A DNA stretch of 64,000 bases from Nitrospirota bacterium (GCA_963751455.1 CAVVUN010000001.1:128001-192000); one strand, 5' to 3'; shown: positions 668-58,149, counted from the first letter of the stretch. Made by a program: numbers and translations. The notes: generated by a model not told the origin, from the sequence alone.

Positions 668-2056
668 GGTAGTGTAGAAAAGGAGAGACTTTGGACATGA
701 AGTAACAACAAATTGCCCTCCATTTTATGGATAATAGTTTTGGACGAAACTAACCATAAAACAGGAGGGCAATATGGGTGTTACCCCACAAAGGAAAGGT
801 ATCACCATCAGTTTTGATTGTCAATTTGAAGTGCATTTGAAGGACAGCTCTCTTTCATCAATACTCGCCGCCTTTGCCGAGCTTTTGCCGCAGATTTTGA
901 CGGACTTCATTCAGAAAGTGCTTGTAGGCTTTGGCGAGCATGTGATGGCTCTTAAGAAAAAGCCTTTTGCCTGCGGGTGCGGCAATGATCGGGAATTCAC
1001 ATGGAAGACGCGGCACGGGAAAAAGACTAAGATTCATGCCTTTTACCAATGGGTCTGGTTACAGCAGCTCCAGGTTGTTTGCAAACGCTGTGGGAGTAAG
1101 CTCTACATCACCCGAAAGCTGCTCGGAATGAAGCCGAAAAAGCGAATAGCGGCAGAAATTTATCGAAAGCTTGGGCTTCTGGGTTCCTTGACAACCTTTC
1201 GTGTGGCGGAGAAGATCGGCAAGATGTTCGGCTGGGCCGTGGACAAGATGACGGTCTGGAGCGCTGTCCAAAAGACGGGGTCGGAAATAGAGTTCAAGGT
1301 TGATGAAAAGGAGCTTCCCCAGGGCGAGGCTGACGGGACCGGGATCGGCATCAAGGGAATCAAGAAGCGCGGGAAGGAATTGAAGGCGTTCATACAGTAC
1401 AAGAAGGGTGGCGGCGTGCGGGTGGCGGGCCTTGATATCGGGAATTATAACGGGTCCTGGGACAACCTTTTCAAGAAGAGTCTCAAGGCTCTGGGGAGCT
1501 TCACCCGTCCGTTTTCCTTAATCACCGACGGCGACACCTCCATCCTGGATGCTCTTAAGGGGAAGGTGAAGATAATTGTTCAGCGCTGCTTGTGGCATAT
1601 TCCCTATCAAGCGAAGTATGTGTTGTGGCAGGACAAAGTGAAGCGTAAGAGCGAGGACTGGTTGTATGTGATCGTGGAGCTGATGGAAATCTGCGCGATA
1701 CGGCCGTTTGTAGACGACAAGCAGACGATAGCCGCGATGATCGCTTCGAAGAAGGCCCGGCTGGATGAACTGATAAAGCGGTGCGCTGAGAGAGAATATA
1801 CTCACACAGCCGCTTATCTTGAAAATGCCCGCCCGGATATGTTTACGGCGATCAAGAAGAGATTAGACGGTAAGACCACGAGCAAGGTGGAGCGACTCAT
1901 GCGCACGGTCAATATGCGGGTAAACGTGAGCAAGTGGACCGAGGCCGGAGCGCTGAATGTCATGAAAGTCCGGCTGGCTTATTACTATAACGGATTTGAT
2001 GCATAATGCGCGTAAAATGGGGGGCTTTTGTCAGGTCTCCACTTGACAACGCTACC
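668..2056 (+). mobile_element. Insertion sequence, ISH6-like (IS256/ISLre2-related), 1389 bp
   Basis: Imperfect terminal inverted repeats GGTAGTGTAGAAAAGGAGAGAC and GGTAGCGTTGTCAAGTGGAGAC (reverse complement of right end); perfect 8-bp target duplication AATCATTT at 660-667 and 2057-2064; one transposase ORF. GGT ends, ~1.4 kb size and 8-bp DR fit ISH6. Confidence 0.85.
774..2006 (+). CDS. DDE transposase (ISH6/UPF0236-like)
   Basis: 410 aa; EADGTG, LITDGD, QRCLWH and TTSKVERLMR motifs of IS256-superfamily transposases; GGAGG RBS at 764-768; lies between the TIRs. Confidence 0.85.
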   Translation: MGVTPQRKGITISFDCQFEVHLKDSSLSSILAAFAELLPQILTDFIQKVLVGFGEHVMALKKKPFACGCGNDREFTWKTRHGKKTKIHAFYQWVWLQQLQVVCKRCGSKLYITRKLLGMKPKKRIAAEIYRKLGLLGSLTTFRVAEKIGKMFGWAVDKMTVWSAVQKTGSEIEFKVDEKELPQGEADGTGIGIKGIKKRGKELKAFIQYKKGGGVRVAGLDIGNYNGSWDNLFKKSLKALGSFTRPFSLITDGDTSILDALKGKVKIIVQRCLWHIPYQAKYVLWQDKVKRKSEDWLYVIVELMEICAIRPFVDDKQTIAAMIASKKARLDELIKRCAEREYTHTAAYLENARPDMFTAIKKRLDGKTTSKVERLMRTVNMRVNVSKWTEAGALNVMKVRLAYYYNGFDA

Positions 2057-2113
2057 AATCATTTTGCCTCCAAAACAGATACAAATTGACTGTCTCATAG
2101 ACTTCTATCAATT

Positions 2114-2196
2114 AAAAAAAAAGGGGGGGGGATGTGTGATGTATGTATGTATGTATGTATGTATGTATGTATGTATGTATGTATGTATGTATGTAT
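2114..2196. repeat. Simple-sequence repeat: A9-G9 homopolymers followed by (ATGT)14
   Basis: A9 at 2114-2122, G9 at 2123-2131, 14 perfect ATGT units at 2139-2194. Confidence 0.95.
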
Positions 2197-2243
2197 AAAG
2201 TATTACAAATAAAATTATTTTGACATAAAATATAAATTTTGTC

Positions 2244-2281
2244 TCGGCTTTTGTTGCTTTTTTTCTTCGGCTTTTGTTGCT
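2244..2281 (-). promoter_or_regulatory. 15-bp direct repeat (AGCAACAAAAGCCGA x2, 23-bp period), candidate AraC-family operator
   Basis: TCGGCTTTTGTTGCT at 2244-2258 and 2267-2281, upstream of the lipoprotein gene and just downstream of an AraC-type regulator. The regulatory role is inferred. Confidence 0.45.
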
Positions 2282-2385
2282 GTTTATATTTTAATCAAAT
2301 TGGTTCCTATGGAAGTGACGTGCAGAATAAACCAGAAAAACAGGGGTCATAAATACAGGCGGGAAATCGAGATTCAGTTTGATAT

Positions 2386-3171
2386 TTATTTATTTCTGAT
2401 TTTATTTCGGAACTGAGTAGGCGTAGATCCGAGAACTTTCTTGAAAATTCTTTCGAAGTGGGTCAAATCCGAAAAGCCCGTACAGAAACCGACGTCCGTT
2501 ATCGAGAGGGCCTGATCGGTCAACAGTTTTTTTGCCTGTTCTATTCTCACCCGATTTAAATAGCTTTGATAGGTCAATCCCGTCGTTTCTTTGAACGTCC
2601 GGGAAAAATGAAATCTGGAGACAGACGCTATCTTTGCCACCTGATCAAGGCTGATATTCGTGGAACAGTTGCTGTGAATATATTGAAGCGCTTTATGAAT
2701 GTAACTGCTCTTGTCGTTCGTGTCGGCGTCCTGGACCTCTTCTCTCACGCTTGTTTCAGCTGGGTCCAGTGGGGCCGTTCTGTGCTTGACCGGCCCGATG
2801 CCCTTACGAAACAAGCATATATTTATCCGTTCTATAAAATCGTCATAAATGAAGGGTTTTTTAACGTAATCTCGTGCTCCAAGTCTGAATGCTTTCACGG
2901 CAACATCTTCATTGCCATACCCGGTTATGAAGATCACCGGAATTAAAGGCATGAGCTTCTTTAATTCTTTTAGAACATCGATGCCTGACATGTCCGGCAG
3001 CTTATAATCAATGACCGCAAGATTAAGATCAGGGTTCTTTTTAAGATAACGGATCGCCGTTTTACCGTCAGGCTTGATTACAACTATGAAGCTCTTGGGA
3101 AGAAAATAACGATGAAGCTTTATCATTTCCAAGTCGTCTTCAACAACAAGAATCTTTTTTTTGACGGCCAT
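2386..3171 (-). CDS. Response regulator, REC domain plus AraC-type HTH
   Basis: KKILVVEDD...IDYKLPDMSG...ITGYG...DYVKKP receiver; C-terminal SRFHFSRTFK...GFSDLTHFERIFKK AraC HTH. ATG at 3171 preferred over TTG 3186. Confidence 0.9.
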   Translation of the reverse strand: MAVKKKILVVEDDLEMIKLHRYFLPKSFIVVIKPDGKTAIRYLKKNPDLNLAVIDYKLPDMSGIDVLKELKKLMPLIPVIFITGYGNEDVAVKAFRLGARDYVKKPFIYDDFIERINICLFRKGIGPVKHRTAPLDPAETSVREEVQDADTNDKSSYIHKALQYIHSNCSTNISLDQVAKIASVSRFHFSRTFKETTGLTYQSYLNRVRIEQAKKLLTDQALSITDVGFCTGFSDLTHFERIFKKVLGSTPTQFRNKIRNK

Positions 3172-3529
3172 ATAATCTGCGCTCAATCTTTCTCGTTACA
3201 TCGACAATGACAAATATGGTTACAACGACGGTGGTGTCGCTTCCCGGAGTCTAGAATTTAAAGAACCAGCTCACCGATTTCAAATTTAATCATCCTGACT
3301 TACAAATGAGAGCGATCTTTGAAAATCCGAAACCAGCCTATCCAAGTTAAATAAAGCTTGGCTGCAAACGATAGTTTTTCTAAATATGATATGGTTTTTT
3401 TAAAATATCAAGAAAATAATGATGGTTTTTTGGGATATATTTTAGGGAATGCCATTATCCCTTATTAACAGCGGCGTTATAGTGTGATTTTTCCATCGAT
3501 ATCATCATATTTAACTATTCATGACAATA

Positions 3530-3563
3530 AAACAAAAAGCCGCTCCATTGAGCCGGGAGCGGC
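3530..3563 (-). terminator. Rho-independent terminator after the FecR-domain gene
   Basis: Stem GCCGCTCC / GGAGCGGC followed by a T-rich tract on the minus strand. Confidence 0.7.
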
Positions 3564-3590: not shown

Positions 3591-4349
3591 TTAAAAATCG
3601 AGCTCCTTGTCCCTCTCCTGGTTCCACTTCACCCAGTCGTCGGCCTCGGCCTTGGGATCGAAATCCTGCGGCTTGGACGGTATGCCCTGCGGCGATATTG
3701 TAATCTGCTGCATAGCCTTGACAATCTCGGTCCATTCTTCCATGGTTACCTCATGGTACGGCGGCGGGACTGCATGTGGACCTGACACCTCGTGAGGAGC
3801 CTTAGACATGTCTGCCGCCTGAGAAGGATCCCTCGGCGGATTTGCGACATATACGGACCCGTCATAAACCTTGACCATGGCGCTGTTGTCTTCTTCCACA
3901 TTTACGCGATATACCGTCCCGCGTACTCCGGCAACGGCATTTGCCGTCTTGACTTGTACCGACGAATCAGCGGTCAGCTTCCTCACCTTGGCCCAGAGCC
4001 TGCCGACAGAGAGGCCCACTGTGATATTTTTCGTTTCGGTTTTCGGATCATATTTGACTTCGCTCATGAGAAAACGGGACTTTTGGGCCAGACGCATAAC
4101 ACTGCCGTCAGGATACCGTATCTCTACCTGCGACCGGTCGCCCACGAGTATTTCATTATCGTCGGTGAGCTTGTCTCCTTTTTTCAATGCGCGTCCCGGT
4201 GCTTTCTTTTTTGTAAATACCTGCGCGCTTCCGTCTATGGCAGTAACAACAGCGCTGCTGCTTCCGGCTGTCTTTTTTTCCACGGCTTCTCCGGAACCGG
4301 ATATAAACATCACCATCGACGCAGCGACAAGCCACATGAATCGTTTCAT
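3591..4349 (-). CDS. Secreted FecR-domain protein
   Basis: Signal peptide; FecR signatures G.S.VEI.YPDGS.MRL...S and VKTANAVAGVRGT.Y.V...V.V..G.V.V. Confidence 0.8.
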   Translation of the reverse strand: MKRFMWLVAASMVMFISGSGEAVEKKTAGSSSAVVTAIDGSAQVFTKKKAPGRALKKGDKLTDDNEILVGDRSQVEIRYPDGSVMRLAQKSRFLMSEVKYDPKTETKNITVGLSVGRLWAKVRKLTADSSVQVKTANAVAGVRGTVYRVNVEEDNSAMVKVYDGSVYVANPPRDPSQAADMSKAPHEVSGPHAVPPPYHEVTMEEWTEIVKAMQQITISPQGIPSKPQDFDPKAEADDWVKWNQERDKELDF

Positions 4350-4396
4350 AATGGTTTTATCCTTTCACCAAGCTGTCACCGAACCCAGTTTGCTCT

Positions 4397-5368
4397 TCAG
4401 CGGCTCAGTTTTACTATATCACCCGGCTGGAATCCTACACCCGACGTAGGCGTTGCAATGGAAAGATCCGCCTGGTCACCAATGTCATTCTGCTGAACGA
4501 TGGCCTGCCCGATCTTGTTCTCCGTGGTCCCCAGCTTCATTTTGGTGACCGGGTCGATGATTTCCTTGCCCGGACGAAACACATCGAGCTTGTCGCCCGT
4601 GTTCAATCCTGATTTCTGTCCGGCGTTGATGTAAAGGTTGCTCCCGTCCACCTGCGCAACTCTGCCGTTCCATTTACGGGTCCCGAGTTTCTGCACCATA
4701 TTCACCATAGCTTTTGTGAGAGCATCTCTCAGCGCACCGTCGCGCAGATCGGAATCATAGCTTACTTTGCTTCCAGCTCCCAGCACGGTAGTCGCCTTTT
4801 TTTGATAGATACCGGCCCCTGAATCGGCCATAAGCTGGACACCCGTGGTTGTATCAACGATCCGATAATCGACCGTTACCCGTGCAATCTGCGTTTTGCT
4901 TTTACCGATGATAAAATCCGTCCCCTCTTCCGCTTCTGAATAGGCAGTGACGGCGCCGGTCACAATTGCATTTAAACCCAGAACTTTTCCCATCTCCGCC
5001 GCGGTATCCGGATTAACCGCGCCCGTAGCGCCCATCCGCTGTTGCGAGAGAATCGAGTCTATGTCCTGCTGCGGTATGACGATAAAACGGTCGGTCTTCT
5101 GTAAAATGGTCCCGAGGATGTCAGCTGCCGCTTCGCCGATTCCAAGCACTTTCGACGGAGTTTTGTTCTGAAAATTTACGACACCTACTCTCAGTTTCGG
5201 GCCCTTATACTCTTTCACGTCGCTCGCCTGGGTCAGTTCACTCGACGTGTTCGTAGCGGTTGTATCGTCTTTGACCTGTCCTCTCTTGGCCGCGTCCGAG
5301 CTTGTTGCAGCGGCAGTTAAAACGGTTGCGCTAACCAACCATATGAACATAACCCTCTTCAAATCCAT
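4397..5368 (-). CDS. CsgG/HfaB-family protein with FlgT-like C-terminal domain
   Basis: Signal peptide; KLRVGVVNF...ILSQQRMGATGAVNPDTAAEMGKVLGLNAIVTGAVT...VDYRIVDTTTG; C-terminal GRVAQVDGSNLYINAGQKSGL..GD.L.V...G.EIIDPVT..LG. Confidence 0.8.
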   Translation of the reverse strand: MDLKRVMFIWLVSATVLTAAATSSDAAKRGQVKDDTTATNTSSELTQASDVKEYKGPKLRVGVVNFQNKTPSKVLGIGEAAADILGTILQKTDRFIVIPQQDIDSILSQQRMGATGAVNPDTAAEMGKVLGLNAIVTGAVTAYSEAEEGTDFIIGKSKTQIARVTVDYRIVDTTTGVQLMADSGAGIYQKKATTVLGAGSKVSYDSDLRDGALRDALTKAMVNMVQKLGTRKWNGRVAQVDGSNLYINAGQKSGLNTGDKLDVFRPGKEIIDPVTKMKLGTTENKIGQAIVQQNDIGDQADLSIATPTSGVGFQPGDIVKLSR

Positions 5369-5400
5369 CGTAATTCCTCCTCAATACCGAATTATAATAA

Positions 5401-6792
5401 TTATTTCGTTTCCGCCATGAGCTCCATGAATGAGTGCGCCTCCGTATATCCGCCGGGGATCTCGAACAGCGATCCCGGGGGCGTTTTGAGGACGATCGTT
5501 TTGAGCTCCGTCGTGACGCGAACATCGCTGTTCTCTAATTCGCTTTTGATGGTCATGTTGTCGAGGTCACGAGCATACCACATGAACCCTTCCTGCACGG
5601 TGCCGTTCTTGTACGTGATTTTGACTTTATATTTGTCGGTCGGATGTTTATCGACCACTTCGCTTCCAATCCGTGTTTTTTCCACAAGGGGCTTTTCATA
5701 TGCTTCCGTTTTGCCGTCGGTAATGGTCATGAATTTCTTCGACTCGGGATAGAGAGTATAACCCGTATTCTTGTCACCGTTGTACACCATGGACATCCTG
5801 CTCATGGCCGGGGGCGCGCCCTGGCCGCCTTTCATCATAGTTGAAAGGTCCATGTCCATCCTGATCTTTTCGCCCGCCTTTGAAATGGGGATTTCGTAAT
5901 TATAGCTGTTACTGCTGTTCTTGTCCATGGTTACCGAAATGAGCACGGCTGAAAAATCCTTTTTCCCGTAATCCATATACCCGAATGACGGAGCCTGGGG
6001 ATTTTTGATTTTCGGCAATGAAATTACCATCGGCTTCGCAACAGGCTCGCGGGCAGAAGCGGTTTCCGGCCCTGGTCCCCAAGGAAGCGTATCTATGATC
6101 CTTCGAGCCATCTCTTTCGATTCATAATCCAGGTGAACGCCGATTGCTTTTGTGAGCAGCTTTGCCCCCATGCCCAGGGCGAATGCCTTTCCGATGTTAT
6201 TTTCACTGGTTGTCACACTGTCAATAGTTACCCACGGCACCTCTTTTTCCCTCGCATCGGCAGTCCGGTTCAGGGCCGACGTGACCGATCCGCTTCTGCC
6301 GGCCATTTTTGTTTCCGTTCGTACCCCCAGTCCTCTTTCCCAAAACGTCTGCCCCGCGCCTGTATCGACCAGTTTGAACTTAGCCCGGACCTTTCGCACA
6401 TTAATCAGACCTGTCGTCGTTTCATCAAAATCCATGAGCGATCCATACAGAACGCCTTCAACACCCAGGGCTTCGCCGAGCTTCTGCGGCGTGGTCATTT
6501 CGAGCTGGCCGCCGAGAGTAATGCCCATCCGATCTCTCAGTATCTGGTCGGTTTCCTGGACATCCTTGACGATATATGCCCTACTCTCCAGCATCTCTAT
6601 CATCTTTTTTCTGACCAAGTCAGGACCGGCTACATCCAGCGTATCGTTCTTCAAGGGTAAAACTGCAACCCGTTTAAGAGGATTGCTTGCATCATAATGC
6701 CTGGGTACTATACGGCGGGGCGCTGACGCACAGGATACGAGCACACTTGAAACAGCGACGACACCCAATAATCTGCACAGCATTTTCACCAT
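5401..6792 (-). CDS. DUF799/GNA1162-family lipoprotein fused to a DUF4412-like domain
   Basis: Lipobox LVSC; RVAVLPLKNDT...PQKLGEALGVEGVLYG...V.AKFKLVD...G...W; C-terminal KTRIGSEVVDKHPTDKYKV...GSLFEIPGGY. Confidence 0.7.
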   Translation of the reverse strand: MVKMLCRLLGVVAVSSVLVSCASAPRRIVPRHYDASNPLKRVAVLPLKNDTLDVAGPDLVRKKMIEMLESRAYIVKDVQETDQILRDRMGITLGGQLEMTTPQKLGEALGVEGVLYGSLMDFDETTTGLINVRKVRAKFKLVDTGAGQTFWERGLGVRTETKMAGRSGSVTSALNRTADAREKEVPWVTIDSVTTSENNIGKAFALGMGAKLLTKAIGVHLDYESKEMARRIIDTLPWGPGPETASAREPVAKPMVISLPKIKNPQAPSFGYMDYGKKDFSAVLISVTMDKNSSNSYNYEIPISKAGEKIRMDMDLSTMMKGGQGAPPAMSRMSMVYNGDKNTGYTLYPESKKFMTITDGKTEAYEKPLVEKTRIGSEVVDKHPTDKYKVKITYKNGTVQEGFMWYARDLDNMTIKSELENSDVRVTTELKTIVLKTPPGSLFEIPGGYTEAHSFMELMAETK

Positions 6793-6888
6793 ACCATCTC
6801 CTTTGTCCGTGATCCATAAGACTGTTTCCAGGTCTCAATTGCTTACTTATTTTTGTATCCCGGCGAGACAAGAGAGCCGTCTACGTTT

Positions 6889-7959
6889 TTAATAAACTAT
6901 GATGACCCGACAGTATTGCAGAAATTCGGCCTTTGACGATAACTGCCGAAGCGTGTCAGCGTCCGCCTGTCCGATCATGAGATCCGTCTTTGTGCTGCCC
7001 GACGCGCTCAACCCTTTTATGACCGCCGGGTTGTCGGTCACTCTGAAATTGTTGGATGCAGCGCTTACATCTTTGGCGTATCCAGCAACGCCTTGCTCGA
7101 CCGCATTGGTCCTCGTAGCAACCTGTCCTACATAAACCTCGCTGCCTTGCGGATCCACGATTTTAGGCAGAAGCGCAGGCCTTAAGCCAAGACCTCTTCC
7201 GTCGATCACCAAACCGGTCGCAACACCGCCTTTAAAATTCACTGTTGCATCAGATTGCGGTGCCGGTGCCGGCTGAGGTAATGCAGGTTTCAAAGGTTCA
7301 GTCTTCTTTTCGGGTTGTGACGGGATAGGCTGTAGCGGCTCTCCGTGCGGTTCCGGGACCTTCGTCGTCGTAGGGGCGGGTTTGGAGGGCTCCGGTTTTG
7401 CAGGGTCGGCTTTCTTGTCCGGCGTCACCGGTTGAGCGGGTTTAATATCCGACGGTTTCTGGGGAATGAGGACTGGTTTCTGAGGAACAGTTACCGTCGA
7501 GGATCGGCCGAACGTTTCCGGCACGACCGCGTTCATGAAGGCGCCCCTCATCGGCATTGATACGACCACTTCCACGGACCCATCGGACAAGTACCTGGTT
7601 TTAACGACGCGCGCTCCCCTCACAATGCCGTCAACCTTGGTCCTGATTATGTCGCTTTTTGTCATGAAATTTTCAACCACGGTCTCCGAATCCACGCGTA
7701 CTTCTTTTACGGCCTCGAGCAAATTGCGTATCCCAACCACAAACGCGGCCCGCTCGGTCATTGCACGCGCCTGCGCGGCATTTGCCGCATTGGCCGGCGG
7801 TGCGCCTATGCCCGTTGCATAAACCTCTCCGATAGTCCAGTTGATGGTACCTGAAGCCGTGTTCTCAACGGCGTCGGAAGGAGCGAACGTCTGGGCATCT
7901 GAATTTGCAAACGCGAAAAGAAACATAACAGCGAGCAAGAATGAGAACTTATAATTCAT
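6889..7959 (-). CDS. LPP20/FlgP-like secreted protein with Pro/Lys-rich linker
   Basis: Signal peptide; ATGIGAPP...ARAMTERAA..RNLLEAVKEVRVDSETVVENF; C-terminal TGLVIDGRGLGLRPALLPKI; clear paralog of 10726-11604. Confidence 0.7.
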   Translation of the reverse strand: MNYKFSFLLAVMFLFAFANSDAQTFAPSDAVENTASGTINWTIGEVYATGIGAPPANAANAAQARAMTERAAFVVGIRNLLEAVKEVRVDSETVVENFMTKSDIIRTKVDGIVRGARVVKTRYLSDGSVEVVVSMPMRGAFMNAVVPETFGRSSTVTVPQKPVLIPQKPSDIKPAQPVTPDKKADPAKPEPSKPAPTTTKVPEPHGEPLQPIPSQPEKKTEPLKPALPQPAPAPQSDATVNFKGGVATGLVIDGRGLGLRPALLPKIVDPQGSEVYVGQVATRTNAVEQGVAGYAKDVSAASNNFRVTDNPAVIKGLSASGSTKTDLMIGQADADTLRQLSSKAEFLQYCRVIIVY

Positions 7960-7995
7960 GTTCTTTTCTCCTTCATGACTGTGCCTTACAGAGTC

Positions 7996-9378
7996 TTATT
8001 TGATGGCGAAATCAAGCAGAGTTTCCTTGCCCGCTTCAGCCTGGCCCGTTTTCGAAACTTCCTTATCCCCCGCCATTGCAGACACCTTATATTGGCCCGG
8101 CGCAAGGCCCTCTATACGGTAGGTCCCGTCTTTCTCTATAGGCACGCCGTAACTGGTGCTTCCATCCCGATAAAACACATCCCCATCCTGGAGCGGCCTG
8201 CCCCGGGAATCGAAAACCTTGCCCTTGATAACGCCGCCGGGTTGAAGCGTGAAGTCGAGCGTATAAATCTTACCCTGTTCCACCTGAAACTCCCGTGAAG
8301 ATTTCGTAAACCCGGATCCTTTCAGCTCAAGCCGATATTTGCCCGGTTTCTCAAGCGCAGCCGCATACCGACCGTCCGTAAAAGGATAAGGAGTTCCCCG
8401 TCCGTCTTTCCAGAGAACCGCCGCTCCTTTCAAAACCGATAAACCGTTCCTGTCGTTTACCCGTCCTGTCACCAGCGCAGAATTCTGGCGATCATCAAGC
8501 CTGCGGCCGAGCCGTTTTTCTTTGGGCATCGGCAGTTCATCGACCATCAGGGTATTGTTTTCCTCTTTAAAAATCGTGAAGAACGTGGCCTTGTCCACAT
8601 CCAGATAGCCTTCCTTATACTTGCCGGGCATTTCCATGCCGTCCAGACGCAGAATCATATGAAAAGGGTCGACGAAATTATGTGAATGTTCCGCATCCGA
8701 GAATGCCCATCCGGTATCAGGATAAAATATTTCAAGATAGGCATGGAATCCGCCGTCGTTTACCTTCACACCCCAATAATCCTTAGAAAATCCCCATTCA
8801 TATCCGGGCGGCAGATAGCCGTGCGCTATTCGTGCCGGAATGCCTGCCGCGCGGAGCAGCGCAACCGAGAGATTGGAATAGCCGACGCAATAGGCTTTCT
8901 TGTGCCGCAAGGCTGAAACTGCATCAGGGGGAACAGATATGCTCGCATCGAATGTAAGGTTGTCTGCGACCCAGGAAAGAACCGCATGAGCAGCTTCATG
9001 TACAAACCTGCTGTCTTTTGTAATTTCTTTTGCAAGGCGTAGAATGGCCGGGTCTGATGATTGCCGGTCCTTCTCGGGGCTTAGGTACTGAAAAAGAGCA
9101 GCAGGGACGACACCTGAAGCGATGGGAAACGGAACCCGGGACTTCATGGGTCGCATTTTTGACGTAACCTGGACCCTTTTGCTGAACTCATCCTGACTGA
9201 GCACTTTTTGTTCGAAAGATTCGTTGGAATAATCGGGGATGAATGCAACGCCGCGCGGATTGACGATATCGTAAATAACAATGTGTTCCCCCTCGAGCAC
9301 TTTGAGGCCTGCAATGGCGCTCGAGGCTGACAACAAAACCAAAAAGAAAATGACAATACAGAGGGCTCGATATCTCAT
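7996..9378 (-). CDS. Secreted transglutaminase-like protein with carboxypeptidase-regulatory-like domains
   Basis: Signal peptide; triad motifs AYCVGYSNL..ALLRAAGIPAR, GFHAYLE, GWAFSD; two C-terminal beta-sandwich repeats (GTYRIEGLAPGQYKV). Confidence 0.8.
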   Translation of the reverse strand: MRYRALCIVIFFLVLLSASSAIAGLKVLEGEHIVIYDIVNPRGVAFIPDYSNESFEQKVLSQDEFSKRVQVTSKMRPMKSRVPFPIASGVVPAALFQYLSPEKDRQSSDPAILRLAKEITKDSRFVHEAAHAVLSWVADNLTFDASISVPPDAVSALRHKKAYCVGYSNLSVALLRAAGIPARIAHGYLPPGYEWGFSKDYWGVKVNDGGFHAYLEIFYPDTGWAFSDAEHSHNFVDPFHMILRLDGMEMPGKYKEGYLDVDKATFFTIFKEENNTLMVDELPMPKEKRLGRRLDDRQNSALVTGRVNDRNGLSVLKGAAVLWKDGRGTPYPFTDGRYAAALEKPGKYRLELKGSGFTKSSREFQVEQGKIYTLDFTLQPGGVIKGKVFDSRGRPLQDGDVFYRDGSTSYGVPIEKDGTYRIEGLAPGQYKVSAMAGDKEVSKTGQAEAGKETLLDFAIK

Positions 9379-9493
9379 AGACGCTGCAAATTATATTTTT
9401 CAGCTTTTTGTGAGACGACAAAAATATAAGGAATCGTTAGAAGCATTTGTCTTTGACACTTTGCTATAAGCTGTGATTGCTTACGAATTAATC

Positions 9494-9524
9494 AAAAAAG
9501 CCCGCCCCATAAAACGGGGCGGGC
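9494..9524 (-). terminator. Rho-independent terminator
   Basis: Stem GCCCGCCCC / GGGGCGGGC with T6 on the minus strand, 14 bp after the stop of the TPR-SLH gene. Confidence 0.8.
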
Positions 9525-9537
9525 ATAATAGCACTAA

Positions 9538-10695
9538 TCAGAATTTCAGCTGGTTTTTGAATTCGCGGATCGCGAGCAACGCATCCGCACCGCATACGGG
9601 GTCACCCGGTTTAAATTCACCGGTTGCCTTGTCCGCTTCAAGGAATCCGCGGGAGGCAGCAACCATGGCCGCATTGAACGCATAGTGATCGCTGCGGAGG
9701 TCAGGAAACAGTGAAGACGACCCGACGTATTTCGTCGCCAGTTTCTCGTCGCCGCTCACCTTGATCAGGATATCCTCCAGCATCAGCGCGAATTCGGCCT
9801 TCGTAATCAGCTTTGTCGGTTCGAACGTGTGGTTCGGCCCGGCTTCGAGTCCACGGACCTGGAGCCTGAGCACGGTATCTATGCTCGGCTTGAGCCAGTT
9901 GTCCGAAATATCGGTCGCAGCTTCAATCTTCACAACTTTTTCCGTTGTCATGGCAGTCGCTGTCGCCTCGGTCGGCGCCTTGAAAGCAGTGTCATAGGTC
10001 TTCGGTCCGCGTTTGGTAAAGAGCTTCTCCAGGTCCATTTCCTGCACGAAAAGCGCCGAGATATCTGCCCGGTCGATCCTGTCAATCAGCGCAATCTGCC
10101 TGCCGATCACGGTCCCCGGCGCGGCGCGCTGGATCTTCTGGATTACCGACCACTCAGCGTTGGCCTCGACGGTGAACTCCTTGTTCATATCGAGGACCTT
10201 GCGGAACATTTCGGCTGCCCGGTCAAAATCCAATGCCACCTTGTATGCAGTACCCATATAGTAGTGCAAGGCAGCGCTGTTCGGATCTTTTTCGAATGCC
10301 TCTTTGAATTCCTTTTCCGTGTTTTTGACCCAGTCCTCCCCGCGCTGCATGCCGTAGAGGCGAATCATGCCGATATTTGACTGGATGCCCTTCTCTTCAT
10401 AGTCCTTGGCTGTCTCCATATTCTCAAAGGCGGCTTTGAAGTCCCCTTTTTTCCCGAGCACGAGGCCCTTGCCGATATATCCCAGCGGCGCTTTGGGGGC
10501 CAAAGCGATCGCCCGGTCAAACGATCTTATAGCGTCGTCAAGCTGTCCTTTATCGAGATACGTAAGCCCGTTCTTATAATGGTACTCCGGCGTGTCCATA
10601 ATCGAAGTCGAAGGGGCTATCTTGGGGCCACACCCGACCGCTGTCAATGCCAGAACCGCCGCCACAACGATGATCCGCTTTATCTGTGTAAACAT
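9538..10695 (-). CDS. TPR-repeat lipoprotein with C-terminal SLH domains
   Basis: Lipobox AVGC; TPR repeats; SLH motifs TDISDNWLK...FEPTKLITKAEFA and FPDLRSDHYAF...FKPGDPVCGADA. Confidence 0.8.
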   Translation of the reverse strand: MFTQIKRIIVVAAVLALTAVGCGPKIAPSTSIMDTPEYHYKNGLTYLDKGQLDDAIRSFDRAIALAPKAPLGYIGKGLVLGKKGDFKAAFENMETAKDYEEKGIQSNIGMIRLYGMQRGEDWVKNTEKEFKEAFEKDPNSAALHYYMGTAYKVALDFDRAAEMFRKVLDMNKEFTVEANAEWSVIQKIQRAAPGTVIGRQIALIDRIDRADISALFVQEMDLEKLFTKRGPKTYDTAFKAPTEATATAMTTEKVVKIEAATDISDNWLKPSIDTVLRLQVRGLEAGPNHTFEPTKLITKAEFALMLEDILIKVSGDEKLATKYVGSSSLFPDLRSDHYAFNAAMVAASRGFLEADKATGEFKPGDPVCGADALLAIREFKNQLKF

Positions 10696-10725
10696 TCAAA
10701 CCTCCTATTTCTCTTTGATTAATTT

Positions 10726-11604
10726 TCAATCAACGAGGATTATTACCCTGCATTTTTCAAGCATGCTCAGATTTTGAGATGCGCTTTGCAATGCCGCAGC
10801 ATCGGCATTGGAGATCACCGTGTCCACCCGGCCGTCCCCGGAGACTTTGATAGCCTTGACGAGGAGCGGCTTGTCTGTTACGCGCGGATTTGTCTGCGCC
10901 GCAGCGGGGTCCTTCATATAGCCCGCCATGCCCTCCTTGACAGCCCAATCTCTGTTGACCCAGGCAGACCCGTAAACCTCTTTGCCGTCCTCATTCAGGA
11001 CCTTCGGCGACATTGCAGGTCTCAAGCCGAGGCCGCGGGCGTCGACGACCAACCCTGTATAAAGCTGACCAGTGATTGCTCCCGGCGCCTGTGCAGCCGG
11101 AGGGGTCGCTGCTGCTGCACCGGCAGTTGACGGTGCGGCAGCCTGCGGCGGAAGAAGGGCTTCTGCAAGCGCGCCAGTCAGCTTCATTCCGACAGTTACC
11201 TCGACTGACCCGTCTGACATATATTTTTTGTCCATGATCATCGCGCCCTGTATAATGCCGTTGACCTGTGTTTTAATAACGTCACTGGTGACGATAAAAT
11301 TCTCCACCGTAGTTGTGGAATCTACCCGAACGCCTTTGACGGCCTCAAGAAGATTTCTGTAAGCAACAACCTGAGCAGCACGTTCCGCCATTGCCCGTGC
11401 CTGTGCAGCGTTTGCAGGTTGCGCCGGGGGGGCGCCGATGCCGACAGCGGTGATCATGCCGGTGGTCCAATCAACTTTGCCGGTGCTGCCTACCGGGTCT
11501 ACAACGTCCTTAATAGTGCCGGTCAGTTGTGCAACCGCACTGCCCGCTGCAAGTATAAAAACCGCAAGTACGATTACAAAAAAACGAGTTCTTATTTGAA
11601 ACAT
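10726..11604 (-). CDS. LPP20/FlgP-like secreted protein with Ala/Pro-rich linker
   Basis: Signal peptide; AVGIGAPP...ARAMAERAAQVVAYRNLLEAVKGVRVDS; YTGLVVDARGLGLRPAMSPKV; paralog of 6889-7959. Confidence 0.7.
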   Translation of the reverse strand: MFQIRTRFFVIVLAVFILAAGSAVAQLTGTIKDVVDPVGSTGKVDWTTGMITAVGIGAPPAQPANAAQARAMAERAAQVVAYRNLLEAVKGVRVDSTTTVENFIVTSDVIKTQVNGIIQGAMIMDKKYMSDGSVEVTVGMKLTGALAEALLPPQAAAPSTAGAAAATPPAAQAPGAITGQLYTGLVVDARGLGLRPAMSPKVLNEDGKEVYGSAWVNRDWAVKEGMAGYMKDPAAAQTNPRVTDKPLLVKAIKVSGDGRVDTVISNADAAALQSASQNLSMLEKCRVIILVD

Positions 11605-11979
11605 GTTGTCCCTCCCTATCAGAACGGTTTAATTATGGAGCCTAAATCGCAGAGGATTTCGATGCTCACCTCCTTATTTATGACTAAAGGCAAGCGACCC
11701 AAATTTTGAGCACTATTTCACATAAGTCTTTGTGAGTCAAGGTAATATTCACCTTTGAATCGGGAAGAAATCGTTAAAATACTCCCTGTAAAGGGCTGTC
11801 CAGGACAACGGGCGGGTAATACAGGCTGGAAAAACATAACAGAATATACCCAAAGGATTAGTTTTTGTCAAGACCGGCGAATTTGGGAATATAACCAAAA
11901 AAGGCATTTTTGCATTATCCAAGATACTTGGGAATGTCAACTATAACTGTGAGCGCGAGCGTCTCTCCTGCCTTGTTTT

Positions 11980-12745: not shown

Positions 12746-14293
12746 TCACTTAACAATAAGGCTCTTTCCCGTCATCTCAGCCGGTTGTTCAATTCCGAGT
12801 AGAGCCAGCACCGTCGGCGCGACATCTGCAAGCAGCCCGCCGTCCTTTACCCTCGGGTTCTCCCCGACAACGATAAACGGAACCGGGTCCGTCGTATGCG
12901 CAGTATGCGGCTGCCCGGAAGACGGGTCTGCCATCATTTCGATGTTTCCGTGGTCGGCGGTTATCAGTACTCGAGTGCCTGTCTCCTCGGCTGCCTGCAG
13001 GACTTTCCCGAGACACTCATCCAACGTCTCGACGGCCTTGACCGCTGCTTCCAGTATTCCGGTATGACCTACCATGTCCGGATTTGCGTAATTGACAAGG
13101 ATAAATCCATATTGACCGGAGCGAATAGCGCTAACGAGTTTGTCAGTGATCTCCCGCGCGCTCATCTCCGGTTTCTTATCGTATGTTGCAACATCTCTCG
13201 GTGACGGAACAAGCACCCTGTCTTCAAGCGGAAAGGGGCGCTCTTCACCGCCATTGAAAAAAAAAGTCACATGTGCGTATTTTTCGGTTTCTGCTATGCG
13301 GAACTGGCGAACGCCATTGGCTGCTCAGGATTTCGCCCAGGATATTCGTAAGCCTCACGGGAGCAAAAGCGACGGGGAGATCGAAGGTCTCATCATAGGC
13401 AGTGAGGCAAACAAAAGCGAGCATAAGGCCGGAACAGTATTCCGCTTGAATCCGTCAAAGCTCGGGTCGGTCAGGGCCTTCGTGATCTCGCGCGCCCTGA
13501 TCCGATCGGAAATTGCAAAAGATAACGGCGTCGCTGTCTCCAATGGTGGCCAACGGACTGCTCGACTTCGGGCATCGATAATGACCGTCGGCATCATAAA
13601 TTCGTCGGTTCTGCCGTTTTCATAGCTCTTCTTTACCGCTTCGGCAGCGGTGTAGCTCATGGCCCCTTCACCCTTTACCAGCGCCGCATACGCCTTCTCC
13701 ACGCGGTCCCAGCGTTTATCCCGGTCCATAGCGTAATAGCGCCCGGAAATCGTGGCGATCTTTCCGATTCCGATTTTCGCAAGATGGCTTTCGAGGCGGG
13801 CGATATATTCGAGCGCGCTTGACGGCGGGGTGTCCCTGCCGTCCAGGAAGGCATGAAAAAATACATTCTGAACGCCCAGGGATTTGGCCATATCAAGCAT
13901 GGCGAAGATGTGGTCAAGCCTGCTGTGCACGCCGCCGTCGGAAAGCAGCGCCATAAGATGAAGTGCAGCGCCCTGTCTTTTCGCTGATTCCATGGCAGAC
14001 ATCAGAACAGGATTTTTAAAGAAATCTCCTTCTCTGACCGCCTTGCTGATGCGTGTGGAATCCTGATATACAACCCTTCCGGCGCCGAGGTTCAAATGCC
14101 CTACTTCCGAATTTCCCATCTGGCCATCGGGCAGACCAACTGCCTCGCCGGCAGCCTGAAGTTTGGTATGTGGACAAGCGGCGATCAGGCTGCGGTAAAC
14201 GGGAGCATGAGCCGATGCGATTGCGTTGGCTTCTTTCTTCTCGCTGATCCCCCAACCATCGAGAACGATCAGCACAACTGGTTTGCGATACAT
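12746..14293 (-). CDS. gpmI: 2,3-bisphosphoglycerate-independent phosphoglycerate mutase; several frameshifts at ~13270-13580, probably sequence errors
   Basis: [30 protein letters not shown] and GRYYAMDRD in ORF 13355-14293; [18 protein letters not shown] and LADVAPT in ORF 12746-13270. Confidence 0.9.
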
Positions 14294-14457: not shown

Positions 14458-15766
14458 TCAGCAGGTCTTTTCGAGATTTACTCCGAACGTGTTCCACTTT
14501 CCGCAGTTCGGACACCGGCCGGACCAGCCCTTGGTGTGCAATTCGCAATTGGAGCAGACATACGGGACAATGATCTGTTTCTTGAATCCGAGTGCCCTCT
14601 TAAATTCCGACGCAGCAAGTCCGAGTGAACCGCGGCGAAGATAGATATTGCCGAGCAGTTTGTGCACATCCGGTAGATCCCTATCGCCCCAGTCAGCTGA
14701 CGACAGGATGTCGAACGCCTCGTCCACCATTTCAAGACGGTAGTACAGCTTCCCGAGAAAGAATCTCAGCGTAATATCCTGCGGCTTCCACATGACCGCC
14801 TGTTTATAGAGCTCGATCGCGCATCCGGGCTCACCCTGTTTCAGATAAAGATCCTCGATACGGTGCAGAAGCAGTACCGAAGACGTCATTTTATACGCTT
14901 TCTCCCAGAGTTCTGCCGCTTCCTTTACCTTATCTTCCTCGAGATAAACTTCTCCAAGCCCCAGATATGCAGGAATGAAATCTTTGTCCAGTTTGATCAC
15001 ACCGCGGAATATTTTCTTTGCGCGTTCCAGGTCGCCTGCCTCCAGCAGTGAACGGCCAAGCTCGTATTTGAAACCCACAAGCTTTCGGTGCTCAATCTCC
15101 TGTTCCGCGGGCGACAAAGGATTGGCAGAGAATACGCCGCTGGGTCTCGGATAGTTCCTCCCAGTGATTGAGCCGTTGATACAGATCCCGCATTTTTATA
15201 AGCGCCGTCAGGTTGGTCGGATCCTTGGAGATTATTTCCTGATAGACTTTCAGAGCGTCGTCATAGCGCTTTGCTTCTTCATAATCTGCGGAAAGAGAAA
15301 ACATGACTTCCTGGTTGTCATAGTCCAGACTCAATGCCTTCTGGTGAAGGAGAATGGCTTCATGATGATTTTTTTCGCGCAGCTGGCTTATTCCCATCCT
15401 GAGCAGCGTATCTACATGGTTAGGATCGATCGAGAGTACCTTCTGAAAAAAACTGGTCGCTTCGGGGTTGCGTTTTGCAAGCAGCGAGTTGAGACCTTTG
15501 GTATACAGCTCCTGGATACGGGACCGCTTTTTCTGTTCGCGCTGCACACGAAGACCGCGAAGAAACCTTTTGACATCGCGGAGCAGGTATAGAAACAGGA
15601 CACTGCCCGCGCCTGCGGCAAGTGAAATCAGAAAGAATGCGGATTTTGAGATATCGTACGACCGGGAAGGAAGGAGATTAACGGTCATTGTACCCGGATT
15701 GAACTCATACAGCGCGAAAATCGCAAATGCGATCAGGAGAAGCACTATCGTTACGAAAAACTTCAT
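14458..15766 (-). CDS. lapB: LapA-like N-terminus fused to LapB-type TPR protein with C-terminal rubredoxin-like Zn finger; frameshift near 15110
   Basis: Two TM segments, then TPRs (ORF 15092-15766), continuing in ORF 14458-15117 that ends YVCSNC...WSGRCPNCGKWNT. Confidence 0.75.
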
Positions 15767-16330: not shown

Positions 16331-16704
16331 GAAGAGGCGCCGCCGAGCGCCCGGGGCATTGAACCAACAGGAACGCGGAGTGCTTCACCCCAGAGCTTCT
16401 CGAGCGCATAGTAAATCCTCGTTTGCTCGTCGAAAATATGCACCACTACGTCGCCGTAGTCCATCAGCACCCACCGGGATTCTTCCTGTCCTTCCACATG
16501 TGAAGGAAGAACTCCCGTCTTCGCCAGTGTCTGGCCTATCCAGTCTGATATAGCGGAAACCTGCGTGGTATTGCTGCCGGAGCAGATCACGAAATAGTCG
16601 GTTATGTAGGTAAGTCCGCGGAGGTCGAGAATCAGGATGTCGAACGCCTTTTTGCCGTCCGCGGCTTCTGCGCACAAGCGTGCCGTTTCTAACGAATTAA
16701 CCAT
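16327..16704 (-). CDS. rsfS: Ribosome silencing factor
   Basis: KKAFDI.ILDL...TDYFVICSG; WVLMDYGDVVVHIF...R.YY.LEKLW. Confidence 0.95.
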   Translation of the reverse strand: MVNSLETARLCAEAADGKKAFDILILDLRGLTYITDYFVICSGSNTTQVSAISDWIGQTLAKTGVLPSHVEGQEESRWVLMDYGDVVVHIFDEQTRIYYALEKLWGEALRVPVGSMPRALGGASS

Positions 16705-17357
16705 ATAATGTATGATTAATTATATAGTGTTCTACGGATTCAGGCAAGAGATATTTAATCGTCCGCCGTGTTTTGACCCTTGTTCTGATGTCCGTTGACG
16801 ATATATCGTAGAGGGGAATCTTTTCGAGATATATCCGGAAGCCTCCGGTTGTCACAACCGATTGGTGTTGTTTCCCGCTGTCCAGCGCCGCCAGCTCGGC
16901 TGCGGCCGTTTGCATGAAGTCTATTTTCAGGAGATCCGGGAACCGGTAACCCGGCCTTGACAGCACTACAAAAGAGCAGAGCGCAAGGACGCGTTCCCAT
17001 CGATTCCAGGTTTGAATATCGAGAAAGGAGTCGAGACCTGTTATAAAATACAATTCCGAACCGGGATTGTCTGAAAGAAGCATGTCAAGCGTATCGGAGG
17101 TATATGACCTGCCTCCCCGCTGTATTTCGATGTCGGATACGGCAAAATTGGGATTTCCTGCAATCGCGAGACGAACCATGTCCAGTCGCTGTGCCGCGGA
17201 TGGAATGTCCCGACCCTGTTTATGGGGAGGCAGAAAAGGAAGGGATGAACAGCACCTGATCGAGCTTCAACCTGTCATGAATCTCTTCAGCCGCGGCAAG
17301 ATGGCCGTAATGTACGGGATTGAAGGTCCCTCCAAGGATGCCGAGTCGTCGATGCAA
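16697..17357 (-). CDS. nadD: Nicotinate-nucleotide adenylyltransferase; frameshift near 17230
   Basis: [15 protein letters not shown] (ORF 17220-17465) joins SYTSDTL...YFITGLDS...ISSTDIR (ORF 16697-17179); TTG start at 17357. Confidence 0.9.
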
Positions 17358-17367
17358 GATACCCCCG

Positions 17368-17480
17368 TCGGCATTCTCAGAATGCCGAATTGCATATTGC
17401 AAAGTGCAAATTGTAAATTGCAAAGGGAAATTTAAACTTATCATTTTGCAATTTGAAATTTGCAATTTTCATTTTACACT
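17368..17480. repeat. Palindrome plus inverted heptamer-repeat array between proA and nadD
   Basis: TCGGCATTCT-C-AGAATGCCGA palindrome (17368-17388); five ATTGCAA-like heptamers at 17389-17423; five inverted TTGCAAT-like heptamers at 17446-17480. Confidence 0.8.
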
Positions 17481-56300: not shown

Positions 56301-57170
56301 TCAAGTCTTTCTCCGTGTATTTTCGCTTTCTCGGAGCCAACGGCTAATTGTGGAATAGTGTACCCCCACTTGGCGTGCAATCTCGCTCTGGCGGTAGCCA
56401 TGCTTTTCAACAGCTTCGCTCAATCTTTTGTACATCTTCTTCTGATCTCGCTCAATCCCCTCGGGGAACAGGACATGCAATTGCGGTCTCGTTGCGTACC
56501 GCTGGCTCCGGGGAATTTCTGGGATATCCTTGTGTTTTTTAAGGCGATCGGTAAGTTTCTCGACAAAGCTGTCCTCGCCCAACAGAGCCTGGCCCCGTAC
56601 CTCGGTCCAAATACTCTTTTGCCCGATGCCCCAGGAAACGAACTGGCGATACTCCTGCTCCGCTTTTGAACGTTTTCGGCTGAATTGTCCAAGCACCCAG
56701 TCAGTCGTCAGACTCGGATGCGGCTCGGTTTTTCCGGCCGTAGCCAGATAACTGGACCATTTCCATTCATCTGGTTTTTCCATCAACGTGGCGCGAACAG
56801 GGTTCAAAACGACGTACCGGCAGACTTCCAGGAGATGACTGTCTTTCTGGATCAGAATGGCTTTATACCTGCCCTGGAAGAGGTGGCCAATCTTCCCGTT
56901 CCTTCTGTTAAAGAGCTGAGTATACACACCGTTCAACTGTCGCATCCCGAGGGACAAGTTGCCCTCCGGCGTCTCGATCAGGAGGTGATAATGGTTCGTC
57001 ATCAGGCAATATGCATGGCATATCCAGTTGTATCGCTTATTTACGTGTTGCAGGGTGTTCAGGAAGTTCTCGCGGTCCTGGTCGTCCTTAAAGATGGGCT
57101 TTTTCCGATTGCCGCGCGAGGTGACGTGATAGACCGCTCCAGGATATTCTATTCTTAGGGGTCGTGCCAT
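56301..57170 (-). CDS. REP-associated tyrosine transposase (Y1_Tnp plus C-terminal HTH), copy 2
   Basis: MARPLR..YPGAVYHVTSRGN, YCLMTNHYHLL (HUH), GHLFQGRYKA, RYVVLNPVRA, WSSY; C-terminal HTH. Confidence 0.9.
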   Translation of the reverse strand: MARPLRIEYPGAVYHVTSRGNRKKPIFKDDQDRENFLNTLQHVNKRYNWICHAYCLMTNHYHLLIETPEGNLSLGMRQLNGVYTQLFNRRNGKIGHLFQGRYKAILIQKDSHLLEVCRYVVLNPVRATLMEKPDEWKWSSYLATAGKTEPHPSLTTDWVLGQFSRKRSKAEQEYRQFVSWGIGQKSIWTEVRGQALLGEDSFVEKLTDRLKKHKDIPEIPRSQRYATRPQLHVLFPEGIERDQKKMYKRLSEAVEKHGYRQSEIARQVGVHYSTISRWLRESENTRRKT

Positions 57171-57202
57171 GCAGTTACCATAGCATAAGGGAAACCATAG
57201 GG

Positions 57203-58072: not shown

Positions 58073-58149
58073 GCAGTTACCATAGCATAATAAAATGTGA
58101 ATTGCAATAAGAAAGACTTGACCCTAAAAGGGTTCTGATCATATATAAA

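Follow-up and report, generated by a model that had tools for sequence, protein, structure and literature searches.

What is built by a bacterial operon whose genes resemble parts of flagellar outer-membrane rings and of the CsgG pore, and which stands apart from flagellar and curli genes? We studied such an operon, here g1 to g7, in a stretch of 64,000 nt from Nitrospirota bacterium (GCA_963751455.1 CAVVUN010000001.1:128001-192000), the window hereafter, along whose whole length positions are counted. Its genes are seven intact open reading frames (ORFs), all on the minus strand, which run from 11604 down to 3591 with gaps of 31-159 bp (Table 1). We found that the constant of this module is a g1-type gene, related to Tp0624 of Treponema, beside a gene for a lipoprotein with tetratricopeptide repeats (TPR) and an S-layer homology (SLH) domain. 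With a probability of about one half, we propose that this g1-g2 core forms a wall-tethered scaffold under the outer membrane and is an output of a predicted surface programme run by cyclic AMP (cAMP) and a Crp-family activator. The module is real, conserved and undescribed in the literature searched: within the full text searched, from which most subscription papers are missing, there was no description of the g1-g2 module or of the conserved promoter box discussed below.

Pfam assigned LPP20 to g1 (28.2 bits, over the cut-off), TPR and SLH to g2 (SLH 23.3 bits, over the cut-off), Transglut_core and two CarboxypepD_reg domains to g3, a weak LPP20 to g4 (22.6 bits, under the cut-off), GNA1162-like and DUF4412 domains to g5, CsgG and FlgT_C to g6, and FecR to g7, while no NCBIfam model reached its cut-off for any of the seven. 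Judged by eye from the translations, all seven proteins carry export signals, with lipoboxes only in g2 (Cys22) and g5 (Cys21) and cleavable-type signals in g1, g3, g4, g6 and g7. An original prediction, made from the window's sequence, had described seven co-oriented genes with signal peptides or lipoboxes and had named these domains, and both descriptions are borne out; the LPP20 match of g4 falls under the cut-off, but g4 is 47-53% identical to g1 in both domains. Its list of parts was right in the domains and incomplete in two respects, having missed the second domain of g1 and g4 and the regulatory elements.

That second domain is evident from a profile of the g1 family (119 sequences), which matches the first two domains of Tp0624, D1-D2, from end to end (E 4.3e-23), and whose D1 matches FlgP of Campylobacter jejuni (9hmf, E 1.2e-19) and of Vibrio (8z5n, E 4.3e-9) without a gap across the FlgP insert. 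Furthermore, the model of g1 (mean pLDDT 89.8) superposes on the Tp0624 structure 5jir with Z 22.8 and an rmsd (root-mean-square deviation) of 2.6 Å over 230 residues (Foldseek E 2.4e-16), the next structure matches being Lpp20 (5ok8, Z 7.5) and HP1454 (4kzs, Z 7.0). Collectively, profile and model indicate that g1 and g4 share the predicted D1-D2 fold of Tp0624, and that D1 is by sequence a relative of FlgP. Tp0624 and the two proteins also have in common the packing of the two domains and a cleavable-type signal. In full-length Tp0624, a fused OmpA-like domain, D3, has been proposed as a wall-to-membrane link, and D1-D2 is called a unit of unknown function (PMC5104382); g1 ends with D2 at residue 292 and has no D3, its neighbour g2 providing a wall-binding fold instead. 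About 50 D1-D2-only proteins are noted in the same paper, in whose accessible text neither a link between D1 and FlgP nor gene neighbours are described. The SHS2 fold is likewise shared by Lpp20 (HP1456) and HP1454 of Helicobacter, from an operon with an LpoB-like lipoprotein, whose proteins bind FlgP in two-hybrid tests (PMC11756786), although these lack D2 and an SLH partner; related Helicobacter, Campylobacter and Acinetobacter proteins are covered in PMC11756786, PMC11394524, PMC5758724 and bioRxiv 10.1101/2021.05.19.444899.

D1-D2 proteins form a large family, which at 50% identity falls into 1,458 clusters (E up to 1e-30); most are not lipidated, a rough rule giving a lipobox in four of 150 representatives. 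An atlas search with g1 returned only clusters labelled LPP20 or hypothetical (Thermodesulfobacteriota, Nitrospirota, Myxococcota), and for one of 20 distant representatives the cluster look-ups gave a taxon name, Bdellovibrionota. Natural relatives with two to six tandem copies of D1 exist (P0123, P0152, P0132), as lateral association would favour. Separately, four to six tandem FlgP-like domains occur in P0132, P0141 and P0206, and another member, P0161, is fused to Hint (self-splicing) domains. In many relatives the neighbourhood of the operon also holds a third paralogue, a 316-aa fusion of CarboxypepD_reg with a FlgP-like D1 (L001:13721-14671). Two copies of it in this genome (G000:C1:72085-72390 and G000:C7:30397-30780) are shorter and seem to be broken, and contig C7, which repeats the region, may be part of the roughly 5% contamination of the assembly.

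The partner of g1 is equally distinctive. The lipid-bearing Cys22 of g2 is invariant in 50 sequences, and the model (pLDDT 83.4) places TPRs before the SLH domain. Residues 179-385 align with the SLH domain of Sap (6bt4) at Z 14.5 and rmsd 3.5 over 158 of 165 residues and with that of SpaA (6cwc) at Z 13.2; these matches came from a wider aligner, Foldseek on the same model having given TPR proteins only. Sap is also the sole significant sequence match in the PDB to the C-terminal half (E 2.7e-4). SLH domains bind pyruvylated wall polymers (title of PDB entry 6bt4); two of the three TRAE-type groove motifs of g2 keep the basic residue (Arg/Lys), and a polysaccharide pyruvyl transferase gene (PF04230) is present in the host genome. 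We infer that g2 is sorted to the outer membrane. The SLH fold holds in model comparison, and the analysis supports the earlier reading of the cluster as a wall-anchored envelope module, which is conserved and made of FlgP-, FlgT- and CsgG-clan parts.

Next we considered how far the genes travel together. Every one of the 57 named loci with a close relative of g1 is from Nitrospirota. Of the 201 genomes searched in this phylum, 79 matched the g1 profile, and of the 53 in the family, 50 did, counts that include this genome and five that match D1 only. Co-occurrence in other genomes, which the original prediction had set as a test, is far beyond chance: among 18 family loci, nine have g1 to g7 in order, seven have five of the seven (without g5, and with g6 missing or replaced) and two are degenerate. 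In other Nitrospirota families the gene order differs, and FlgT_N-bearing, DUF4384, caspase-like, CHAT, SLT and CHASE2 genes vary. The g1-type gene adjoins a TPR-SLH gene in 51 of the 53 scorable named loci (57 examined, three too short, one without D2), in 14 of 17 other-family loci and in 59 of 59 scorable metagenome loci (80 examined, 21 too short), figures biased toward adjacency because short loci count only if the neighbour is seen. None of the metagenome loci with room on both sides lacks the adjacency, and among the 58 with less than 62% identity to g1, 42 are adjacent and 16 too short.

Some genomes depart from this pattern. Four family genomes (L093, L095, L017, L004) lack g2 to g7, or most of them, together with the Crp gene and the box, and keep g1 at 69-76% identity, which hints that g1 has a role independent of g2. 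One further locus (L097, G150:C19:214000-233999) has neither D2 nor SLH; it combines three genes that encode D1 alone or in double copy with a FlgT_N protein, a FecR-LPP20 fusion and a CsgG-like gene.

The CsgG and FlgT_C matches of g6 could mean that the operon encodes a curli-type secretion pore or a flagellar H-ring, and in one locus of another family (L080) the module does start about 300 bp after flgE, an arrangement that ORF reading does not repeat in L091 of the same genus. This explanation is largely refuted, and we regard it as highly improbable. In the host genome (5.7 Mb, completeness 100%, contamination 5.4%), searches for FlgH, flagellin, FlgI, CsgF and curlin found none of them, in line with the claim that no flagellar or curli subunit gene is nearby; a genome-wide Pfam search for SLH missed g2 itself, and the curlin search could likewise miss weak members. 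Furthermore, FlgI occurs in five of 24 family genomes as against 23 of 24 for g1, which agrees with the proposal of a non-flagellar module that is independent of flagella.

The H-ring of Vibrio (FlgT, FlgP, FlgO) and the FlgP basal disk of Campylobacter remain close in their parts, as D1 aligns gapless over the ring-forming insert, g6 shares the pairing of a CsgG-clan domain with FlgT_C, and FlgT_N-bearing proteins join the module in other lineages. Unlike these structures, the module goes with no flagellum, g1 is unlipidated and carries D2, the insert is modelled as helices, and the SLH lipoprotein, the papain-fold enzyme and the FecR-domain protein have no H-ring counterpart. The module works most like the H-ring and Tp0624 and is a full member of neither.

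We then examined whether g5 and g6 could make the module a device for export. The match of g6 to CsgG (E 1.6e-8) is joined by one of its C-terminal domain to TsaP (6ve2, E 6e-13), a wall-anchored ring protein around pilus secretins, and a weak one to FlgT. Its first hairpin is 6 residues shorter than that of CsgG, the two hairpins measuring 20 and 16 residues by sequence and the second falling outside the alignment to CsgG, and its lipobox, kept in 23 of 23 close orthologues, is lost in this genome, the identical g6 sequence occurring in three sources. A curli-type pore is accordingly unlikely, g6 being dispensable, short in its hairpins and here devoid of its lipid cysteine, and the CsgG-centred secretion ring of the original prediction is not supported, given that g5 and g6 are absent or swapped in seven of 18 family loci and neither CsgF nor curlin was found. 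FlgO, FlgP and FlgT form lipid-anchored rings without a pore (bioRxiv 10.64898/2025.12.02.691832), and such poreless rings are, as an analogy, the better guide to g6.

The match of g5 is to GNA1162 (4hrv, E 5e-6), whose family we take to be the former DUF799. A GNA1162-like gene beside a CsgG-clan gene, with no curli genes, also marks the three-lipoprotein csgG/GNA1162 cluster of Acinetobacter and Neisseria; here, in contrast, both are dispensable accessories of the g1-g2 core, and g5 has an extra DUF4412-like domain. The role of the csgG cluster is called unknown in the accessible part of bioRxiv 10.1101/2021.05.19.444899, which also reports that csgG deletion in the Acinetobacter cluster lowered PNAG and pili. 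That result would suit a platform for export or display, in which the module moves or anchors co-regulated Gly/Ser-tethered lipoproteins or polysaccharide and CsgG-clan subunits, where present, serve as pore or anchor. Long Gly-rich hairpins (29-30 and 24-25 residues) in some distant g6 homologues (L020, L083, L086) point the same way, as do the many box sites that precede such lipoproteins and the one that precedes a polysaccharide export cluster. We consider it rather unlikely, however, in view of the state and dispensability of g6, and the operon has no constant substrate gene, co-regulation being no proof of a substrate relation.

Another possibility is that the module serves to remodel the wall. 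The catalytic triad of g3 is conserved (C164 in 38 of 39 sequences, with one gap, and H212 and D228 in 39 of 39), and g3 is related to 6g49 (E 1.6e-4), which we take to be TgpA of P. aeruginosa. Monomeric g1-g2 units might position g3, or the amidases and transglycosylases of other lineages, as a platform for remodelling peptidoglycan in which no ring is formed. SLT transglycosylase and amidase genes adjoin some loci, g6-like proteins give weak matches to LpoB, and Helicobacter HP0018/HP1457 are discussed in that sense in PMC11394524. No single enzyme is constant, however: among long loci, g3 is present in 30 of 40 named ones and in 0 of 14 distant metagenome ones, which makes the transglutaminase-like gene an accessory of some Nitrospirota lineages and a remodelling platform improbable. 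Of the proposed cross-linking or proteolytic enzyme, the catalytic triad thus holds.

In the window g2 is followed by a strong terminator-like hairpin, and a hairpin occurs at this place in all 39 family loci folded, its T run weak or missing in a few. An alignment of 32 sequences, 31 of those 39 plus the window, has 99% of its cells paired and two-sided changes in five of nine pairs, with none of 500 shuffles as high, a count made on the same sequences from which the structure was picked. The hairpin that closes the operon was read by eye, having a loop beyond the limit of 8 in our terminator scan. Upstream of g1, a P1-type promoter is found in 35 of 44 family regions and the weaker P2 with its box in 36 of 44, every region having at least one of the two.

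The box is predicted from sequence to be a class II site of one Crp-family activator. Its palindromic variants are centred at -41.5, the class II activator position, as counted from the -35 hexamer in its usual place. In the variants of highest symmetry, GTGA and TCAC are 4 bases apart, compared with 6 in the canonical CRP box, which is itself not enriched upstream of g1 (12 of 44 regions at 8/10 matches versus a shuffle mean of 6.8 and maximum of 14). The host genome contains 8 box sites of at least 22 bits versus none when reversed, a strict pattern gave 47 sites in 41 genomes versus one control hit, and box variants precede module genes in eight of 11 other-family loci scanned.

In five of 57 named and seven of 17 other-family loci, one Crp-family gene is located no more than 6 kb upstream of the module, and it also lies upstream in two of 80 metagenome loci; its product keeps the cyclic-nucleotide pocket and recognition-helix motifs, and the host genome has the orthologue at G000:C15:73957-74703. 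Tallied by hand over 200 genomes, the box accompanies the orthologue in 53 of the 55 that have it (35 of 36 within the family and 18 of 19 beyond it) and occurs in nine of the 145 that lack it (four of 17 and five of 128). In this tally the pattern derives from sites at the module, some loci have gene and module linked, related genomes are non-independent and draft genomes have gaps. Because gene and box also occur without a full-length g1 (G114, G165, G177), and several genomes have the module without gene or box, the box tracks the regulator better than it tracks the module.

Away from g1, we counted 28 box sites in relatives, three of them at contig edges; the next gene carries a lipobox at 10 of the other 25 and is exported by eye at 17, the same rough rule giving a lipobox in 119 of 3767 ORFs of the host genome. 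Among the targets are lipoproteins of two kinds, Gly/Ser-tethered and GNA1162-like, peptidases of the M6 and M23 families and, at one site in the host genome, a Wza-type polysaccharide export cluster; several sites have no clear target. A comparable programme is known from Sinorhizobium meliloti, where cAMP-Clr activates polysaccharide, FecR-domain and TPR genes (PMC5498481). This CHASE2 cyclase-Clr regulon shares with ours a Crp-family activator, CHASE2 cyclases, FecR-domain and TPR targets and polysaccharide genes; the box differs, no SHS2, SLH or CsgG-clan targets are reported in the accessible part of PMC5498481, and control in our case is a prediction from sequence.

The host genome has three CHASE2 genes, two of them confirmed as cyclases and one adjoining a FecR gene. 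A region of the same genome (L219, G000:C1:241000-260999) holds a CHASE2 cyclase, an M48 peptidase, a FadL-like barrel and a series of large lipoproteins with Gly tethers, of which two have a P2-type box upstream. The module could be an input to this circuit, with a FecR-like protein reporting envelope state or surface contact to CHASE2 adenylate cyclases in a feedback loop with Crp. Consistent with this, CHASE2 cyclase genes lie within 10 kb of the module in four of 57 named, two of 17 other-family and one of 80 metagenome loci, CHASE2 stands beside a FecR gene in L085, and caspase-like and CHAT proteases recur near the module. A sensor is nevertheless distinctly unlikely, as the CHASE2 link is sparse, the Clr-activated FecR and TPR genes of Sinorhizobium are reported to be unnecessary for signal perception (PMC5498481), and a terminator that favours g1-g2 fits structural subunits better.

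FecIRA-type cell-surface signalling was rejected: g7 opens with its export signal and has no cytoplasmic anti-sigma N-terminus, a terminator and an AraC response regulator follow it, and no ECF sigma or TonB receptor gene was seen beside it. The absence of both from the vicinity had been predicted, and we saw neither in the translations, 10 window proteins having been scanned with Pfam and NCBIfam. Matches of g7 to Lsa33 and LipL45 models are far below the cut-offs.

We return to the wall-tethered scaffold, of which the folds, adjacency, terminator and box distribution are observed, and the binding, polymerisation, wall ligand and inducer are conjectured as follows. The lipoprotein g2 would hang from the outer membrane and grip the wall through its SLH domain, as an in trans counterpart of the OmpA-like D3 of Tp0624, while its TPRs would bind g1. 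By analogy with FlgP, g1 may associate side by side in rings or patches. Owing to the hairpin that follows g2, the bulk subunits would be g1 and g2, and read-through would yield g3 to g7 in smaller amounts; g5 and g6, as CsgG-clan proteins like FlgO and the middle of FlgT, might dock at the membrane, and g3 might cut or cross-link a module subunit or the wall. Under this hypothesis, P1 gives a basal level, a cyclic-nucleotide signal, probably from the CHASE2 cyclases, raises the programme through Crp, and the module probably serves to brace the outer membrane and keep it organised while the surface is loaded with lipoproteins and polysaccharide.

Several observations weigh against this scaffold. 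On the side of g1, the segment that corresponds to the FlgP hairpin (residues 91-119) is modelled in the monomer as two short helices, as in Tp0624, and ring formation in the FlgP family goes with an insert that forms a beta-hairpin (PMC12222027); the helices may reflect the Tp0624 structure in the training data of the predictor. Covariation in D1 (461 sequences, effective 228) is weak and leans to helix packing, with one strong pair inside the insert (E101-T106), several helix-packing pairs and a weak hairpin ladder. Purified Tp0624 is a monomer (PMC5104382), and neither g1 nor g4 has the lipid anchor of FlgP. We dropped the idea that D2 caps a polymerising insert, since PMC5104382 puts the D2 contact on the third short helix, which maps outside the insert. 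On the side of g2, the third SLH motif has Gly where Arg is usual, nine OmpA-family proteins are already present in the genome, so that the need for an extra tether is not obvious, and an intact g2 was not found in four of five genomes tested for it, all of which keep g1 and one of which (G099) is 100% complete; the g1-g2 pair is therefore not obligatory. As for control, many box hits sit at the module itself, no strong box match was seen in three Nitrospirales-type or 11 metagenome loci, and the Crp gene too is absent from the Nitrospirales-type and distant metagenome loci scanned, which limits this control to certain lineages.

A broader hypothesis, which we put forward tentatively and hold to be possible though doubtful, is that flagella recruited their FlgP, FlgT and FlgO rings from a periplasmic scaffold that is widespread and non-flagellar and has g1-g2 as its core. 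The SHS2 insert would switch from the helical, monomeric state of Tp0624 to the beta-hairpin of FlgP, and wall-anchored rings would polymerise beneath the outer membrane. In Nitrospirota, induction of the scaffold within a surface-building programme would fall to a cyclic-nucleotide Crp that has a new box. Two questions meet in the operon: how flagellar outer-membrane rings originated, and what the D1-D2 unit of Tp0624 does. With a large D1-D2 family nearly always beside one SLH lipoprotein in the loci read, it offers a two-protein system for purification and imaging, and the predicted Crp box points to a condition for induction and to a set of surface genes under the same control. The pair would also be an SLH-based wall tether in a phylum outside the SLH-positive controls.

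Table 1. Genes and predicted regulatory elements of the operon, by position in the window
Feature	Position	Strand	Description
g1	10726..11604	-	292 aa; periplasmic, predicted FlgP/Lpp20-type SHS2 domain and Tp0624-D2 domain
g2	9538..10695	-	385 aa; lipoprotein, TPR domain and three-lobed SLH domain
g3	7996..9378	-	460 aa; exported transglutaminase-like (papain-fold) enzyme, Cys164/His212/Asp228, and two CarboxypepD_reg
g4	6889..7959	-	356 aa; g1 paralogue, long Pro-rich linker between its two domains
g5	5401..6792	-	463 aa; GNA1162-like lipoprotein and C-terminal DUF4412-like domain
g6	4397..5368	-	323 aa; CsgG-clan domain, short hairpins, and FlgT_C/TsaP-like domain; lipobox cysteine lost
g7	3591..4349	-	252 aa; exported FecR-domain protein of the LipL45/Lsa33 kind, without anti-sigma N-terminus
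Promoter P1	11843..11871	-	sigma-70 consensus type, 11/12 matches, 17-bp spacer
Promoter P2	11712..11753	-	conserved box 11741-11753 abuts the -35 hexamer; predicted class II site, Crp-family activator
Hairpin after g2	9493..9524	-	intrinsic-terminator-like; separates g1-g2 from g3-g7
Hairpin closing the operon	3529..3563	-	terminator-like; 8-bp stem, 9-nt loop, T run

Lipid A and outer-membrane biogenesis genes fill a long region (14458-35291) that has the operon just downstream of it; from their translations we take these genes to be lapB, lpxK, waaA, msbA, lpxB, lpxA, lpxD, skp and bamA. Housekeeping genes at 12746-14293, 14458-15766 and 16697-17465, presumably gpmI-, lapB- and nadD-like, are each split into two frames and whole in relatives, which points to indel errors in the assembly; these errors spare all seven module genes. 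A search of a plasmid collection gave no match, and no RNA run was listed. After g7, an AraC response regulator and an ISH6-family transposase (774-3186) occupy the place where most relatives have fur-feoB-like genes; here that block lies about 50 kb off (G000:C1:77000-79600, L102), a displacement suggestive of an insertion or rearrangement. At 2140-2195, the response regulator and the transposase are separated by some 13 copies of TACA in a perfect (TACA)n repeat, after which come C and T runs. Finally, two tandem, near-identical transposase copies, which we assume to be of the REP-associated type, stand at 56301-59636 beside another transposase, presumably IS1380-like.

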